Assembly: GCA_037379345.1 (NCBI GenBank)
Contig: CM074519.1
Location: forward strand, 18,254,103 to 18,318,102
Length of the DNA stretch: 64,000 nt
Origin: Perna viridis
Taxonomy: Eukaryota
Direction of reading: 5' to 3'
Shown: in pieces, positions 6,946-64,000 of the stretch
How the letters are laid out: the number at the start of each line of letters is the position of its first letter
How positions within the stretch are numbered: the first letter of the stretch is position 1
Translations under genes and position numbers: made by a program
Notes under the pieces: generated by a model
What the model saw: the letters and a program-made list of their open reading frames with translations, nothing else
What the model was told of the DNA's origin: nothing
Databases searched by the model: none

Positions 6946-7059
6946 CTGAGGAAGATGCAGGAAATGTTAGCACGAATGCAGGCTGAAATGGAGGCTCAGA
7001 AACGTATGGCAGGAACACCAGGAAAACAAAATGGTGGCATCAATACAGCTAATGTTTAA
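6946..7059 (+). CDS. SEPT2: Septin gene 1 last coding exon (coiled coil and stop)
   Basis: ctccacag acceptor. LRKMQEMLARMQAEMEAQKRMAGTPGKQNGGINTANV* resembles SEPT2 LRRMQEMIARMQAQM. TAA at 7057-7059. Confidence 0.95.
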   Translation: MRKMQEMLARMQAEMEAQKRMAGTPGKQNGGINTANV

Positions 7060-26576: not shown

Positions 26577-26673
26577 GTTTAATGCAGTTGTCTCCCTTTA
26601 GACTGAGTTATGTTTCCTGGACTGAAACCAACAACACTGGCTTCTCATGGCAGGAGAGATTTCAGGAGCAGAG
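26577..26673 (+). CDS. Candidate upstream exon of septin gene 2 (ATG 26610: MFPGLKPTTLASHGRRDFRSR, phase-1 exit)
   Basis: tttcag acceptor, GAG|gtaatt donor. Joins exon 28024 in frame. Confidence 0.4.
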
Positions 26674-28023: not shown

Positions 28024-28070
28024 ATTTGATTGAGAGAATCAAGGAAGAAACAGTGATGAATTGTGAAGAT
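28024..28070 (+). CDS. Candidate upstream exon of septin gene 2 ((D)LIERIKEETVMNCED)
   Basis: tttcag acceptor, GAT|GTGAGT donor, purine-rich, phase 1-0. Runs in frame into EEDEF at 58691. Confidence 0.55.
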
Positions 28071-36194: not shown

Positions 36195-36227
36195 ATGGCA
36201 GGAAGGAGGAGGAAAACTATATCAAAG
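36195..36227 (+). CDS. Candidate alternative first coding exon of septin gene 2 (MAGRRRKTISK)
   Basis: aactATGG start context, consensus AAG|GTAAGT donor, phase 0. Preceded by about 1.4 kb of purine-rich, UTR-like sequence. Confidence 0.65.
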
Positions 36228-45890: not shown

Positions 45891-46843
45891 GATCATATGG
45901 TCAAGCTGTTAGAGTCTTTCATTAAAAAATATTTTTCGAGGATGTAGATTTCATTCTTGTTGATTGAAAGGTTGGTTTTTTTTTTTCGAGGACTGCATTG
46001 GGAGTTATAACCCTCTTTCTGAGGTCAAATTATGGATGGTCCTGAGGAGGCATGAGAGGTCAGTTACAGTTTCTAAGAATGATTTTCTCTATTGAAACAC
46101 TTTGTGAGTCTTTGAAAGTGCTCTTCAAAGAATTTAAGAAAAACAGATTGAAATAAACAATTGTTGTAGTTGCATCAAGATATAAATTGTTTATGACACT
46201 CTTGATGTAGACTTGAATAAAGATGAAAAGGATTTTTATGCAAATGCCAGAAGGAGTAATATAACTATTTAATAGGAAACATATACCAAAGTGTTTTTTG
46301 AAGAAAAACTCAATTTGACGGAGATGAGATCACTGTATATTAATTCAATTTTTTTATGACATTGGGGTTTGAAATTTGACACCCTTGGCGTGAGTATAAT
46401 AGAATATTGAGATATATAATACTTCATTTATTACACATCTTGTTGTACATACTTATTTTCACCCAAAAAAAATGTATTTTGACGACATTGTGTGAATATG
46501 GCTTAAATTGGAATAAACATAGTTTGCCAGTTGAATACATATGGAGGAGAAGACCAGGTGACCAGGAAACATGGAGTTTTAAGAAAGCTTGTCCTGATTT
46601 TGTTTATAAGTACTTGTAATATTTTTGCACGAAAATCAGTGACTTCAGACTAATCTGACTTGAGGATATTGTTTGATATATGGGTATTTTATTGAAGTGT
46701 CAAAAAAAGCGATTTCTTTCTCAGATAAAGTCATCAGAATATTGACATATACAGTCGTAAGGTAAAAATGTTGCACTTTTATCCAAAGCAAAAATTCAAA
46801 ACAACATTTGAATGTAAACCACTGAGGAAGTTTATTAAAATGC

Positions 46844-48730
46844 ATGACTTTTGACTTGACTAATTACCATAAAACTGTTACAAGTTTGACAGCGGTAATT
46901 AATCACAAGATGGAAGAGCAAAGAAAAACGGGATTTAAAACACCATTAAAATTCCTTTCCATAACACGATCAGCAAGTTCGGATTCAAAATTGGCCTTAC
47001 CAAAAATATTGGATAGGCCTTTGAACAAGAGGCTTTTAACGCCACGTGCAATGTCTATGTCAAAGGCAGATCATTCGCCAAATGGAATAGAAACCAAAGA
47101 TGACATTGATCAAGTTAAATATAGAAATGCAACGCTGACAACTCCGCAACGTCCCATGTCCATGTTTGTTTCAGCAGGAGCAGACCCCAAGACGAGATGG
47201 AGAGATAATGCGACAGACAGCAGGTACCCGCTACTTCTATCTGTTTCTTCAGAAGGACAACTAAGTCCCAGTAGAGATGTGAATTCAAACATTAAAGAAG
47301 GTACTAATACTGAAAGTCAGAATCTACCTCAAGAGGTCAAAGTGCATAATCTTGAAAACAACCTCGATAGCAATGCAAATCCTGGAAATGAAATGGAGGA
47401 GCTTAAATATCTACCAAACCCAACTATTTCTGGATGTACCAAAGACCTCTTGTCTCTTGAGAAAAGCAGAGAAACTGATGTTTCTGTTCAAAACAGTGCT
47501 TCACATTTGTCTTGGAATAGTACAAGTGCCCAAGGAGTTCCACATGGATTAAGGGACACTCTTTATCAAACTGAGGTAAAGGATAATTCAGGTTCAAGTG
47601 ACCACAGCAACACTATTGTTTCAATGCCAACCAAGCCTATATACTATAATGTTCTCCCTGTGTGTTCTAAAGAGGAAGCTGTTTCACTTCACCCTAAAAG
47701 GGAGATAACTGAAAATGTGATAAAAAGTGAAAGAACTGCAGTAAGTGAAGAAAGTACAAATTCAAATGAGGGATTTGATAAAATAAATGCCCCTGTTGTG
47801 GATATAAAAGATAAAAAGGGTGAAAATAAAATTAATTCTATACAAAACATGAAAGAAGATGATTTGGTAACAAAACCTAAAGTTAAAGAGGAGCATCCTC
47901 CTCCTAAATCCTCTTTGACGGCTTTAAAGAGAATGTCAGGTGACTTTGATTCTGGGTTTGTATTTTCTCCAAGGACAAGGGCTCTTCTGTCTGAAAATGA
48001 GAGATCTAATGCTAGTGGTATAGAGGAAAAACCCAAGTCAAGTTTCTCTTTAATGTCAAGATCAGAAAAGTTACGGAACAAACTGAGAAGTTTGTTGTCG
48101 GATGATAATGGATATTTGCCAAAAAAGGATACATCTCAAAAGAATAACTGTAAGCAGGAGACTTCTACAGAGAATTTTGAAATGGCGAAAAATGCAGTGC
48201 TAAAATATGAGTGCAATTCTGACCTCCCCAATAAGGTCAAGGATGAAAGTAGTACCTTGACCTCTAGAGAAAAGTGTCAAATTAATGTATACCAAAACCA
48301 TCCATCATTGTCTGAAGACAAAGTGGCTAAAATGAGCTGGAAATCACAGCCAGATCTATTGACTGATATTAGAAAGGACAAATTGTCCTTTACATCAAGT
48401 GAAGTTGTTCAGAAACCCAAGTCTAATTCTTTCAGTGAAAATAAGGAAATAGGAACTTTGACCTCTTATTCAAAAGCTGAAGAACAGAAGAAAGATAATA
48501 TTGATGGCCTTCAAAAAGATATGACCTTGACCTTAAATACCAGTGTAGAAAAACCCAAACCAGATGCCTTTGGTGATGTTAAAAGGGATATGACCTTAAA
48601 CTTTGATGGCAATGCCAGGCAAAAGAGAACTAATGATCCTTTATCCCCAATAGATTCATTATTGACATCACCAACACGGCCTGCCAGACGTCGCCATAGC
48701 AGAAGAAGATACTTCAACCCCAAGACACTG
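46844..48730 (+). CDS. Giant alternative first coding exon of septin gene 2 (about 629-aa Ser/Lys-rich disordered N-terminal extension)
   Basis: Only long ORF in the window (640 codons). It ends 11 codons after a CTG|gtaata donor at 48730 (1887 nt, phase 0), in frame with the acceptor at 58691. The start could be Met 46844 or 46910. Confidence 0.75.
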
Positions 48731-50155
48731 GTAATATTTATCTCACAAAATTTTTTTAGCATATGATTATCTCATGCTAGGGATCTGGCTTACATATATA
48801 TATACCCATGAACATTATTGCCAAGCTTTGGCTGTTTTAAGATGGAGTTTTCATTCGAATATTTTCTCATTTACCTGAAGAGTCTAATGCCACTTAAGTG
48901 ATCTATGTTTCTGACCCTATTATTGAGATATAATGGGAACACACTGTGATATTTTTTTTAAACTGGATTTCCAATCAGATGTTTTCTCATTAGGCTAGAG
49001 AGTCTAATCCCACTTGAGTATAGTATATAAATAACTTCAAATAACCTCAATCAGGTGTGCACCATGGCCATTGAAGTTATTTCATATAGCATGAAAAAAT
49101 ATAATTTTAATATCAAAGTTTAAGGAGAAAATCAGCAAAAAAGGGTTAATGACTTCACAGTCACATTACACATTTTGGTCTATGAGATGATGGACAAAAT
49201 TGTTTATCAATGCATTCAGGAAGTGTGTTTCATCTGAAATTAAATTATTAGAAATTAACCCATAGAAATTTTCTTTTTCTGAAAGGCTTGTAACAGATGG
49301 TCAATTCACAAAATTAGTTTATTTGATCTCTGTAAAAAGAAAATGTATTGGTATAGAAATCTTCAGTGTGTTTCTTATTCTTAAGCTAAAAAATGAAAAT
49401 GGAAAATAAAAGATCTAGACAATTTTGATAAATGAACAATACGTTTTGATACTCAAGTCATGAACTTGGTTTTGACAAGTGCCCTGATGAATTGCTAATA
49501 ACATTGACTTGAATAAGGTTAAATAATGAATCTTAAATTATTGTAATTTGATGTTTGGTCACACACTTTATCATACTGTAGTCAGCATCTGTTATTTAAT
49601 TGATTTGAAAACCACAAAATTCAAAATATGAACATTGACAAAAATGGAGTTATTATTATTCTAATTTTGATTTTGCAAGAGTTATTGTTCTTGATTCGGT
49701 TTAATTTGGTTGATTTTAGTGGGTGATAAATGTATGTTTTTTCCAAAAGTGCAGATCTGAATATGGAAATAATTATCGTAATGGGAAAATATAGCTTATG
49801 TAGACTGAAAAACATTGTTGTTTTGTGGGGTTTTTCTACACCATGAATCACTTTACCATTGGCAGAGTCTGAAATTTATGTGGACTGGTACTTAAAAACT
49901 TCTACAGGGTGAACCTATGAACCTTTTCATCATCCCTTATAGAAGTAATCTCCCTTTATTGATGTTTTTTTTAACATTGCCATCTTTAAAGATGTCTTGT
50001 TTACCTTGTAATTTAATGTGTTGGGCCAGTATCATTGACAAAATCCTCGACAGGAAAATAAAAAATGAAAAGAAAAAAGGGAAGTGCTGGGAAACCTTTC
50101 TAAACCAAACCCAGAATAATTCAAAAACCTGTCTATACCAAACACCTTTTTTATT

Positions 50156-57270: not shown

Positions 57271-58690
57271 GCACTTTTTCACTGGAAAATAAGGCACATG
57301 GTTTACTTCTTACTTTTGGTTTAGAAGTCAAGAATGTTTCACAAAAAAAATGTAGATCATGGTGTGTCAAGGTCACTAATACTAATTATAGATATATATA
57401 TATTATGGTCTCTTTAATAGTGGCACAGTTTAACATTTCCCCATAATTTACCAACAGGTGTAAAATTTGTAAACAAACTCACTCAAGAAAAAATTCAAAA
57501 TCTGATAAAAATGATAAATTTTCTTGGCGCTGGGCCATCTTCCCTTTGTTATATATGTTTACTATATCATCCTTATTTAAGTATAGCTCCACCCAAGAAC
57601 CTTGCTGACAGTGGTTTATCACCTATTTACAGCCAGATGTGTTTCAAAATCTCTTTAAATAACCCCTGCAAAGTGTGTTTCCATTAGGAATGCTGTATTT
57701 TGTGAGATATGTTTGACTGGCTACAGTGTAAAATGAGCTGGAAGTTTTTAGCATGAATTTTCCAGAAATTTATCATTGTGGAACTAAATTGAAATTTAGC
57801 TGTAAATATCTGCTTAACTCAATTTTCATTGACATTTTGATTGTTAACATTGTCTATTAGGAATTCTGAAGGTTTTCCAGTCAAAATAATTTTGTCATAA
57901 AGATATGCATGAATCCTTAATTATCGGCTTATGCATAATTCTTAGATGGACCTGTACTTAAAACTGTTTTAACCATGACAAAACTATTAGAGCTATGCCC
58001 ATTATACACCAAAATAACAATTATGATTGTAGGAATTGTGTTTTAAGATGTTGAATACCAGTCTATGTGGTTATTAAATGTAAACCATAACAAAGCGACC
58101 CAGCATGGACATTGAAGGCTTATATGGTCTACAGAAAGTGCAGTTGTGCTTTTATGGTGTTTAGATTAAGAATTTGGGTTTGTAGGGCAGTGTTCTGAAT
58201 GATGAACAAAACTTTGAAATTATACTACTTTGTTTAGGTATAGGGCTTGATACTTTGAGCATAGACATTCAGGGGCCAATTTTTTCTACATTCCCAGTCA
58301 TGAAATATCTACTAAATAACCTCCACATGATTTGAAACAAACAAAAAATAGCAGTTTAAGATGTCTGGACACAAAATTCACACATGGAATGTTTATCCCA
58401 AACTTAGTGGAAAAATTTTCAGGTTAAATGTGCTTTTACAATTAAGGCAACAATAACATTCTTTTGGTTCTTGATATCTATGCCTGGGGCAAATTACAAT
58501 AATTTTTTGTCTGCATGTCTGTTCACCTATCCATTTATTTCTGTCATCAAGGCTTGGCACCACATAATTGCTCTCAGCACTACCTCAAGTACTAATTGAC
58601 TGGGTGCATCTTACTTCTTTGTCTGTTTATCTTTCCATTTCCATATGCTTTGGAGGTTAATTTTTACTTTTATATTTTTTAACTTCTCAG

Positions 58691-58784
58691 GAGGAAGATG
58701 AGTTTATAGGATTTGCCTCCCTTCCTGACCAGGTCCACAGAAAGGCTGTGAGGAGAGGATTTGATTTCAGTCTTATGGTGCTAG
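58691..58784 (+). CDS. Septin gene 2 (SEPT2-group, Sep4/SEPT4/5-like), first common core exon
   Basis: ttctcag acceptor (phase 0), G|gtgagt donor. [31 protein letters not shown](G) contains the alpha0/polybasic region of group-2B septins. Confidence 0.95.
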
Positions 58785-60499: not shown

Positions 60500-60586
60500 G
60501 TGACTCAGGTTTAGGAAAGTCTACACTCATAAACAGTTTGTTCCTTACTGATCTCTATAAAGACAGACAAGTGCTTGGTACTGCAG
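60500..60586 (+). CDS. Septin gene 2 exon with G1 P-loop
   Basis: ttttgtag acceptor, CAG|gtaatg donor, phase 1-1. [29 protein letters not shown]. Confidence 0.97.
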
Positions 60587-61528
60587 GTAATGACTGAAGC
60601 AAGTTTGTATCCCTACCAACTTTGGTTCTTTATTTATTGTCTTCTGCATACAAAAACGAGGCTCTGCATAGTACAGTGAAACTTGTCTAAAATGAACGCT
60701 TAGAATCTGAAAACCAGTCTACACCAGACACATTTCAAATTGCTTCGTATCACTTAAGTAGCAGTCTTTCTGAAAATCAGACAGAAGGTGATTGCAATAG
60801 TAATGTTAGAAATTTCATTTTATTTAGATTCTAAGTCAGACATACCTTTTGCTGTAGGAAGACAGTGCAGTTTTTTTTTTCTAAATTTCTTGTGGCAGTT
60901 TTATTGTGGCAAAAGTAAAGTATCTTTTTTGGTCATAACTAAATGACAAAATTACAATTTTATATGCAGCGATTTCTTAATTTATAATGTTTCTATCAAT
61001 GTATCAAAACAATCATGAATTAGAATAGAAATAGAAAATTAACCATAATATAACATGAAATAAAACATTAATGAAGATGGACTATTTAGTCTACTTAATG
61101 ATACAAAAACTTATCATTGTGATTGTAGAATCAATTAGCCATTGAAATGTACATCTACTTCATTTATATATAGAGATAAAAGCAGTGCACTGTCTTGACA
61201 TATTACTTCAACATGGTTGAGGCTTTGAATTGTGGGAAAATGAGAGGCTGTGTTGAGCATTTTCATTGTTTCAAACCAAATTTGTATATTAATTTTGTTT
61301 TCAAGTCAGTGCTCTGTTATTCTCTTTATACTTCAAAAAAAAGAAAGAAAAGAAGAAATAACATTTTGGGCAAGAAAAACAATGTTTTATTTAAAGCAGG
61401 CGACTTCCTAGCAACTTCGATATACTGTAACGTTTATATGTCAGAACAGAAAATTATGGATGGTCATTCATCTATCATTAAAAAAGATATTTTTAAATGC
61501 TGATAATATGAATCTCAAATTCAACTTC

Positions 61529-62166
61529 ATATCAGCCTCATATCTTGACCTCCACTTAGATATGGATGGTAAAGAAAAAGTATTGACCAAACTTTACGAC
61601 AAACGTGATGACTTTTCATTCAGAATTATCAACTTTCCTTTCATCTGTGGCAACATCCCTTCAGCACCTGTGTATGGAGTGTTCATATCACAACTCATAC
61701 GTTATGCCAGAGCTTGCCGAAACTTCAGAGACTTTTTGTATTGCTCTAGAACTCTAACAAATAGGCTTCTGGAACAGGGTTATGTTGCTACAAGATTGAA
61801 GTCATCACTACAGAAGTTTTACGGTCATCATCATGAACTTGTATCCATCTGCACCATGAAAACTGATTTATTCATGGGTCGTAGTTTTCCTTTCCTCGTT
61901 TGTCTATCCCGGACTTGACTTTTTATGAGCAACTCAGCGGTGTTTCTGGACAAGCAGAGGGCGCTTACCCTACCAGTGCACCTGGTCCATGCTCCCAGTT
62001 TTTAGTGGAGTCCAAGTTGCTCATTTGCTTTTGTTACTTTGTATGTATGATTTTAGTTACTTTATGTTCTTTGTTGTGTAATTCTATTTTCCATGTCTGG
62101 TCTTTGTCCTTGGATTACATTCTTTTGATTACCTCTATAACCTGGGTTCCCTTGATTACTCTTTCA
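61529..62166 (+). mobile_element. 5'-truncated Penelope-like retroelement (RT C-terminus/thumb plus 3' region) in an intron of septin gene 2
   Basis: SASYLDLHL...TKLYDKRDDFSFRIINFPFICGNIPSAPVYGVFISQLIRYARAC...LLEQGY...LKSSLQKFYG is a typical PLE RT C-terminus. No endonuclease follows. Confidence 0.85.
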
Positions 62167-62700
62167 TAAACTGAAGAAAATCAGAAATTTCATCAGATTT
62201 TTGAAAGACAAGCATTCTCAGTAACTATTTATTAATTTAAGGAGGTAAACCTAGGGTAAGGGATATAACTCTTGAAACCAGGAATATGTTTGTATCATAT
62301 TCAATTTCATCAAAGCCTATCAAGCTTTCATTTTCAAACAGAATGAAATCAGAACAAGTTACTTAGATGCTTATACGAGATTGATGTAAAATGCTGAATG
62401 CAAACATTCCATTGATTTGTAAATGTTGTGTCCCTTACCTTAGGTCTACCTCCGTACATTGGGAGATTACTCAAATTCATATAGAATTAAGACTAGTGGT
62501 CGATTTCATAAAAATTGAAAATATATAAAAAATCAGTGGTATTAAAGTAAAGATGTCACAATACGTTTTCTATAATGATGTAACTTACCAGAAGGTTTAC
62601 ACTTAAGAATGTTTACAAAATCGATGGCATTTTCCCATTTGAAAGACTATTGATGGTATGATACAATGTAGGTATAAAAAAATATTAAACTTCTCTTTAG

Positions 62701-62824
62701 ATTTGGTAGAGAGGACTGTAACTACAGAGAAGAAACAGTTGGAGATAGAGGAGAGAGGGGTCAAGGTCAGACTGACGATCGTAGATACTCCAGGGTTCAA
62801 TGATGCAGTTAATGCTGACGAAAG
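62701..62824 (+). CDS. Septin gene 2 exon with switch I and G3
   Basis: ctctttag acceptor, AG|gtatgg donor, phase 1-2. [41 protein letters not shown]. Confidence 0.96.
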
Positions 62825-63496
62825 GTATGGTGAAGATGATATTGTAAATGTGTATTTGATCCGGGCAACAATCGGTGATTGATGACTGATCGCAATTTTT
62901 GTTGCACGGATCAGTTCAGGTACTGTATTTATTTCTTATGCTTTACTTGAGACAGCTGGAAAATTAAGGAAAACATTTTTTGTATATTTGAAAATAATTC
63001 AATATGATTTGTATGAAGCCTTTTGGGCAAGCTTGGTTATTTTCCATAGACTAACTTTGTACTGTGACATCATAAGCATAGATGTTTCACAGTCTAAAAT
63101 TTAGATTCATGGTTCATGAAGCATAAACAGCTCTAAAATTGGTTATTTCCCATAACTTGGTCAAAAATTAAAAAAAAAAACAATCTTTAATGAATTTCTC
63201 AGATATTGCCTTAGAAAATTGAGAAAACTTAACAATATTCTTATTGTTGTTCATGCTGTGACAAATTTTTCAAATTTAGAATTTTTCCCATATCAGAACA
63301 AAAAATATTCAAAAATTATGCTCCAAAAGTTTACAATATTCTTATCGTTTTTGATGTTATTACAGGTTTTTAAAAAAGTAATTTTCGTTTTTAGGTAAAA
63401 GCTTCTCGATACCAAAAAGAATAGAATTTAAATAATTTTGCTCAAAGAAATTATACTTTGCAGGATTCACTAAGTTTTGTTGCTCATGATTTTCAG

Positions 63497-63631
63497 CTGG
63501 CGGAAGGTAGTGGAATATGTTGACTCACAGTTCCAGTTATATTACCAAGCTGAAAGTGGTTTGAACAGGAAAAATATCCAGGACACACGTATACACTGCT
63601 GTCTTTACTTCATATCTCCATACGGGCATGG
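63497..63631 (+). CDS. Septin gene 2 exon; gene continues beyond the window
   Basis: ttttcag acceptor, GG|gtatgt donor, phase 2-2. [46 protein letters not shown]. Confidence 0.96.
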
Positions 63632-64000
63632 GTATGTAGGTCCTTGAAATTTCCAAAATGATTCTGTAAAAAGTAATATTGTGTATTCTTTGTTCTAATA
63701 TGACATGTTTCAAAGTTTTTTTTGACTTCATCTGCAGTAAAACGTTGATAAACATATAACCAATGTCGTAGACTCATGACAATTTTTTTCCCCAATTTTA
63801 ACGACATCACAGCACCATTTTGTGCAACACTTAGGCTACATCTTTTTTAAATTATGAAGGAACTAGTCCTGTTAAAATAGAATGCTCAGGGTAAAATAAT
63901 ACAACATAAAAAGCCTGCCTATAGTAAAAATAATGATAAAATGGAGTTTCCATGATTTATTTCTTAAAAAGATTGTTTTAAATTTACCTATACTGGTATA

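Follow-up and report, generated by a model that had tools for sequence, protein, structure and literature searches.

The septin gene in the 64-kb window of Perna viridis DNA (by the window we mean the whole stretch analysed) has three alternative starts, one of which is a giant first exon. Comparison with related sequences suggests that the bulk of the ~600-residue head encoded by this exon is likely a predicted-disordered, fast-changing spacer. The exon ends in a basic RRxS motif, and we propose, with about even confidence, that this motif would work as an electrostatic patch, controlled by phosphorylation, next to the interface at which septin rods join.

The only large open reading frame of the window runs from stop to stop over 46826-48766 (646 aa); the next longest has 168 aa, and the chance expectation of a frame this long is ~1e-18 at the base composition of the window. 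The interval 46844-48730, which the sequence-only reading had singled out as an uninterrupted frame, is the ATG-to-donor part of this ORF and is open throughout. It ends as described at a phase-0 donor (GT at 48731), and the septin core placed ~10 kb downstream begins behind an AG acceptor at 58690/58691, after an intron of 9,960 nt. The claimed head of ~630 aa was right as to the ORF but not as to its start: the mytilid relatives in the alignment all begin at the residue that corresponds to the second in-frame ATG, 46910, and not at 46844. This gives a head of 607 aa and a predicted protein of ~970 aa, close to the proposed isoform of roughly 1000 aa. The stretch upstream of 46910 is covered by contigs of runs X6 (46455-46704), X2 (46478-47208), X10 (46559-46855), and X1 (46776-46929). 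Two differences were each seen in a single contig, G>A at 47046 in X10, which hits the arginine of RAMS, and C>A at 47529 in X6; depth is low, and they may be alleles or errors.

Table 1 Features of the septin gene in the window (coordinates in window positions)
Feature	Position	Strand	Basis or distribution
Short isoform, first coding exon, phase-1 donor	26610..26673	+	tblastn with Mytilus short heads, E 1e-8
Short isoform, second exon; head end near-neutral to acidic	28024..28070	+	joined to 58691 in 4/4 runs
Third alternative 5' exon; its 11 codons give the basic MAGRRRKTISK	36195..36227	+	joined to 58691 in 2/4 runs
Likely 5' UTR of giant exon; in-frame upstream ATG 46844	46455..46909	+	unspliced low-depth contigs
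Giant alternative first exon, coding part; head of 607 aa, disordered by prediction; phase-0 donor	46910..48730	+	ORF, contigs, orthologues, disorder prediction
N-terminal island; KTPLK at 46937-46951 is a complete proline-directed site of the form [ST]Px[KR]	46910..46969	+	14/20 residues invariant, 5 mytilid rows
Mytilid island with TPxR, RPxS (flagged earlier as RPMS), KTRWR	47090..47300	+	mytilid alignment
Mytilid island with KPIYY, VCSKE, LHPKRE	47630..47704	+	13/20 invariant in block 263-282
Degron-like string DSGFVFS	47948..47968	+	ESG in Mytilus, absent from second mytilid lineage
Terminal module: S-P sites 48644 and 48668, basic patch 48677-48709, RRxS serine 48698-48700	48644..48730	+	common to molluscs
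First core exon common to the isoforms, with acidic stretch, FIGF, and polybasic region of alpha0	58691..58784	+	contigs, homology
Core exon with P-loop (G1)	60501..60586	+	contigs, homology
Core exon with G3	62700..62824	+	contigs, homology
Core exon; gene runs beyond window to ~70280 (coiled-coil exons)	63498..63632	+	contigs, homology

At least half of the words of the giant exon were present in 20 of the 24 sequencing runs listed, which come from six studies. None of the 20 is on record as RNA and 14 are guessed to be RNA, although the exact removal of GT..AG introns argues for mRNA. A 4086-nt contig of run X1 covers 46924-48729, 58690-58781, 62699-62822, and 63495-63631 with GT..AG joints, and the loose end before 58690 in a contig of run X2 is the end of the giant exon. 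With these two contigs the junction 48730/58691 was seen in two of six runs mapped (X1 and X2, from two studies), which bears out the claim that the exon is spliced onto the septin core. A contig of run X6 ends at 48729 and has 31 extra letters, consistent with the junction. No read-through past 48731 was found among the contigs listed; together with the lack of a transposon or viral match described below, this means that the exon stands. We regard the existence of the long-headed septin isoform as practically certain, and a minor intronic polyadenylated form may occur beside the spliced main form. Within one study, the fraction of exon words present was 0.97 in X1 vs 0.00 in X21, where missing words (as in all of X21-X24) are no proof of absence. 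Contig depths for head and core (X1 56/56, X2 ~7/59, X6 ~7/23, X10 ~5/63) are unsuited to ranking the isoforms.

Two shorter 5' exons share acceptor 58691 with the giant exon in contigs from four runs. For the short isoform, homology and the GT/AG phase point to a join from 26610..26673 to 28024. The 11-codon exon at 36195-36227 has no counterpart among the Mytilus short-isoform heads listed and may be a second route to adding a basic patch. Further downstream, an intronic repeat at 61412-62330 holds a frame of 168 aa, and contigs similar to it are very numerous in each of the four runs. It matched no Pfam family at E 0.01; we take it to resemble the C-terminal fragment of a retroelement.

The sequence-only reading had also warned that automated annotation could take the exon for a separate orphan gene. 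Head-only ORFs from unspliced contigs do exist (P0003-P0008, P0299), as predicted, whereas RefSeq in Mytilus joined the head to the septin as isoform X1, though under the name 'uncharacterized protein'. That such head-only ORFs (with P0337 a further case) read past the same donor would fit a stand-alone single-exon orphan gene, a transposon, or a viral ORF, yet spliced contigs carry the head onto the septin core and an 810-aa spliced form (P0142) shares a cluster with the head-only ORFs. A Pfam search of the head, taken to E 1, found no family, its first 147 aa match the genome once, and the orthologous position is occupied in Mytilus, all of which argues against a transposon. Splicing, the single genomic match, and the lack of a Pfam family refute an orphan gene or transposon origin as the main reading, to which we give next to no weight.

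Long heads are also present on septins of other bivalves, but outside the mytilids their sequence no longer aligns with the window head. A search with the head returned 7 of 7991 candidates, namely six head-only ORFs and the 'SEPT4' protein of Mytilus coruscus (833 aa), which has a septin domain. The orthologous gene and head, with the same start, islands, and junction, are represented by Mytilus californianus XP_052072557.1 (889 aa) and M. coruscus CAC5386141.1 (833 aa). Over the first 400 head residues, identity to the Mytilus isoform X1 models, which bear no functional name in the databases, is 46%. The P. viridis head is ~80 aa longer (607 vs 527), with an additional stretch of low conservation and a DMTL motif in two copies. 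This motif, DMTL(T)LN, occurs twice here (48518-48538 and 48587-48604) and once in other mytilids, which suggests internal duplication. Long isoforms with a septin domain measure 833-896 aa in Mytilus, 791 in Pinctada, 639-648 in oysters, 694 and 888 in scallops, 597-599 in unionids, 757 in Mercenaria, 756 in Dreissena, and 730-803 in Mya. The RefSeq and GenBank long-head models covered four Mytilus species, Pinctada, two oysters, two scallops, two unionids, Mercenaria, Dreissena, and Mya. The long isoform type is already modelled by RefSeq in Mytilus, oysters, scallops, and clams. Those of Mya and Dreissena are called septin-9-like and peanut-like (P0325, P0318). A profile search for distant homologues of the head gave three matches in 1.84 billion representatives, all of them mytilid head sequence, and an ESM Atlas search with the Mytilus head gave no usable match, a result that shows neither absence nor novelty. 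No published description of a molluscan long-headed septin isoform was found in a literature search run without most subscription journals.

The core to which the head is joined is a SEPT2-group septin of the molluscan and insect Sep4 clade, and not a SEPT9, as judged by sequence comparison. Against PDB structures, the Mytilus orthologue scored 463 bits with SEPT2, 383 with SEPT7, 273 with SEPT9, and 258 with SEPT6. A 38-row tree placed the window core with mytilids (100/99), then with molluscs (95/98), and in a clade with insects (89/96, drawn open); the tree has no Drosophila sequence, two outgroup rows are long branches, and it does not settle the root or the placement of vertebrate SEPT4/5. 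Krill, priapulid, brachiopod, and annelid sequences also fall into this clade, for which we assume the name Sep4. Beyond the window, exons at window coordinates 68401-70280 match the C-terminus of the orthologue, the coiled-coil region, at 74-82%. The genome has at least four septin loci. Just upstream, in tandem and in the same orientation, is another septin of the SEPT2 group, of the canonical SEPT2-like kind (G000:C9, ~18245650 to window position 7035). It has the same exon layout as the giant-exon gene, with which it forms an old tandem pair, and in the 38-row tree it pairs with a partial rodent SEPT2. Two further loci, L005 (G000:C10) and L006 (G000:C5), served as outgroups.

Composition and predicted disorder of the head agreed with what had been claimed. 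It is rich in Ser, Lys, Glu, and Asn (S 12.9, K 10.0, L 8.7, N 7.7, E 7.2%), with a FoldIndex of -0.08 vs +0.08 for the orthologue's core, and AlphaFold gave a pLDDT below 50 for 517 of 629 head residues on an alignment of only five rows; both predict a disordered head. The net charge is +10 (pI 9.0), with +7 in the first 50 aa and +6 in residues 573-622. A full-length AlphaFold model of the Mytilus orthologue (mean pLDDT 43, 699 of 889 residues below 50) was poor even in the G domain and is therefore silent on docking of the basic patch.

The head had further been described as rich in short linear motifs with many S/T-P sites. The motifs named are indeed where they were placed (DSGFVFS, RSAS at 46967, RAMS at 47045, RPMS at 47150, and KSQPDL at 48341), but the claim of richness failed: measured against 5000 shuffles, RxxS occurs 4 times in the head vs 4.27 expected and S/T-P 8 times vs 7.66. 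Only [ST]Px?[KR] was above chance (6 vs 2.17, p=0.016), as one of 13 patterns tried. Five aligned mytilid rows agree at 137 of 611 positions, and the conserved islands comprise the first 20 residues, 83-150, 263-290, and 595-625. Motif conservation in the orthologous exons was mixed: KTPLK, TPxR, RPxS, KTRWR, VCSKE, SPID, and RRxS are kept, whereas RAMS, SPNG, SPSR, and KSQPDL are not. RAMS, found in no other mytilid, and KSQPDL, not aligned in other mytilids, were rejected. The pattern [KR][ST]P[LF] lies within the first 20 aa of 10 of the 14 long bivalve heads. The spacer would not be inert, because the KTPLK, KTRWR, and VCSKE islands are as invariant within mytilids as the terminal patch.

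DSGFVFS had been flagged as beta-TrCP degron-like. It fits the consensus DSGx(2-3)S/T, and a phosphodegron of this type would make the isoform short-lived. Mytilus retains the block SGxVFSPRTRA, while DSGYHS occurs in Mercenaria and ESGVIS in Mya. However, the aspartate is a glutamate in all three Mytilus rows tested and the block is missing from the second mytilid lineage, the strict pattern occurs in 2 of the 14 long heads with a 2-12% chance in each, and its single occurrence here vs 0.06 expected is borderline by shuffling (p=0.058, 5000 shuffles). The degron is unsupported as a conserved feature, and we consider a short-lived isoform of this kind improbable.

The terminal basic patch, in contrast to the named motifs that were lost, was found where it had been claimed and is conserved across molluscs. 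Heads were scored for [RK][RK]x[ST][RK] within their last 24 residues. The pattern was present in 12 of 14 long bivalve heads; these rows are not independent and include that of the window, three from Mytilus, and two from oysters. It was also present in 15 of 27 heads of gastropods and cephalopods and in 1 of 4 heads of annelids, brachiopods, and priapulids. It was found in none of 22 short bivalve heads, 33 insects, 5 echinoderms, and 114 vertebrates. Both scallop long heads have the basic patch but failed the pattern. In every positive row, the S/T of the pattern lies 13-16 residues before the [FY][IV]GF of the core, a spacing that spans bivalves, gastropods, octopus, and Owenia. The basophilic kinase consensus RRxS/T is kept at the homologous position; the pattern was written after the sequences had been seen, so that the shuffle fractions (1-3%) flatter it. 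A profile of the mytilid head without its last ~30 residues matched 6 of the 219 septin heads, all of them mytilid, with the next best at E 0.15. When these residues were kept, the profile next reached Pinctada (E 0.0013) and gastropod heads, in each case through the terminal motif.

The basic end is also present on shorter heads. It occurs on heads of 242-611 aa in 15 long bivalve forms and of 41-171 aa in 17 non-bivalve rows (chosen for carrying the end), and the scallop version is seen in one Pecten model whose head has 55 aa; the protein starts of long- and short-head models are predictions. Since the basic end sits on short heads in gastropods, bivalves likely enlarged an old short exon upstream of the motif. 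Among the three starts of the P. viridis gene, the net charge of the last 24 head residues is +8 with the giant exon, +5 with the 11-residue exon, and -1 in the common short form.

Known septin structure gives the position of this patch a possible meaning. According to 10.1101/569251, human SEPT2 and SEPT5 cap the hexamer and leave the NC interface exposed, and according to PMC7201284 the alpha0 polybasic helix packs into the NC interface next to a polyacidic region and has been linked to membrane binding. For sperm, PMC11648301 places septin polymers under phosphorylation control (SEPT12 by PKA, SEPT4 by GSK3). In the proposed mechanism, the choice of first exon would set whether rod ends bear an extra basic patch, and this patch could bind acidic membrane, tubulin tails, or the acidic region of a neighbour. 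RRxS corresponds to the consensus of basophilic kinases of the PKA/Aurora type. Such a kinase acting on the RRxS serine would weaken the patch, as would proline-directed kinases acting on the nearby S-P sites. The ~570 residues upstream would likely serve as a spacer that grew in bivalves and contains some docking islands particular to individual families. The earlier description of the isoform as phospho-regulated is hereby narrowed to one putative basophilic S/T site, whose distance to the core is fixed, and to three or four candidate proline-directed sites that are conserved, leaving aside general motif richness. An arginine cluster with flanking S-P sites is generally typical of regulated import signals, and the patch might instead be a nuclear or nucleolar import signal or bind nucleic acid without any switch at the interface. 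The near-fixed distance of 13-16 residues suggests a structural relation to alpha0, and we think an import or nucleic-acid role has little chance of being correct.

A likeness to SEPT9 had been suggested from its long N-termini, and the head might on this analogy bind or bundle microtubules or actin directly. The two share an isoform-specific, disordered, basic N-terminal extension from alternative 5' exons (SEPT9 i1-i3), and the mildly basic P. viridis head bears charge at both ends. A precedent comes from SEPT9_i1, in which, according to 10.1101/2021.04.06.438596, a 25-residue isoform-specific basic motif suffices for microtubule targeting. If the partner of the patch is tubulin, this reading overlaps with the electrostatic patch that we prefer. 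Nevertheless, the core is not of the SEPT3/9 group. The position in the rod also differs, as SEPT2-group subunits are terminal and have a coiled coil. The Bai-type SEPT9 N-terminal repeats given in PMC3871440, K/R-x-x-E/D and R/K-R-x-E, were not enriched over expectation (10 vs 13.3 and 0 vs 0.39) and were rejected as a feature of the head, where the Pfam search likewise found no family. The SEPT9 likeness was thus not upheld, and a head acting as the SEPT9 N-terminus does is in our judgement unlikely.

The parallel to vertebrate SEPT4 fared better as a matter of layout. A turtle SEPT4 isoform of 1274 aa carries both DUF4655 and Septin domains (P0405), so that here too a very long 5' coding region is set on a SEPT2-group septin, as the sequence-only reading had put forward for the human gene. 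The vertebrate head is likewise annotated apart from its core in a DUF4655-only horse protein (P0352), which is misnamed SRRM1-like. We take the DUF4655 head to be C17orf47, in keeping with the title wording 'SEPTIN4 (C17ORF47)' in the references of PMC11648301. The vertebrate gene differs in having further exons between head and core and in lacking the molluscan basic motif. DUF4655 (PF15548) matched neither the window head nor five bivalve long isoforms, with P0352 (828 bits) and P0405 (73 bits) as controls, and BLASTP of the head against the horse and turtle DUF4655 proteins gave E 6 or worse; DUF4655 homology was rejected on these grounds. With no similarity between the heads, the resemblance is probably convergent and not homologous, although signal may be lost in disordered sequence.

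The head could still be the counterpart of the long vertebrate SEPT4, a germ-line form that would build a ring like the sperm annulus. Stop codons in exon 1 of human SEPTIN4 (R69, R241) abolish the annulus, as stated in PMC11648301, and the shared layout and the difference in exon presence between X1 and X21 (a weak hint of tissue-specific use) would agree with such a role. The missing DUF4655 match in the bivalve heads and the wide presence of the exon across listed runs and studies speak against it, and we rate a germ-line counterpart as quite unlikely, below the SEPT9-like role. The electrostatic patch at the rod end remains our preferred reading. Insect septins of the Drosophila Sep4 type would share the clade of the window core, and Sep1, Sep4, and Pnut of insects are placed in group 2B in PMC1931588; insect heads lack the terminal motif.

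In the literature surveyed, the worked-out cases of septin N-terminal isoforms are mammalian SEPT9 and SEPT4, and such isoforms steer filaments among membranes, actin, and microtubules. That the exon is already modelled in related genomes lessens the surprise, and the point of interest is narrower but better supported than first proposed. The comparison narrows a 600-residue head to one ~30-residue module beside the polymerisation interface, common to bivalves, gastropods, and octopus, and it corrects the names 'uncharacterized', 'septin-9-like', and 'peanut-like' for these isoforms. As one gene supplies three natural variants of differing charge, the switch idea is directly testable. More tentatively, and with somewhat less confidence than we place in the patch itself, we suggest that molluscs may share an old, undescribed, kinase-controlled basic exon held at a fixed distance from alpha0, which would switch rod-end polymerisation or the capture of membranes and microtubules, and which would have been inflated to 240-610 residues in bivalves and be convergent on the SEPT4/C17orf47 design.
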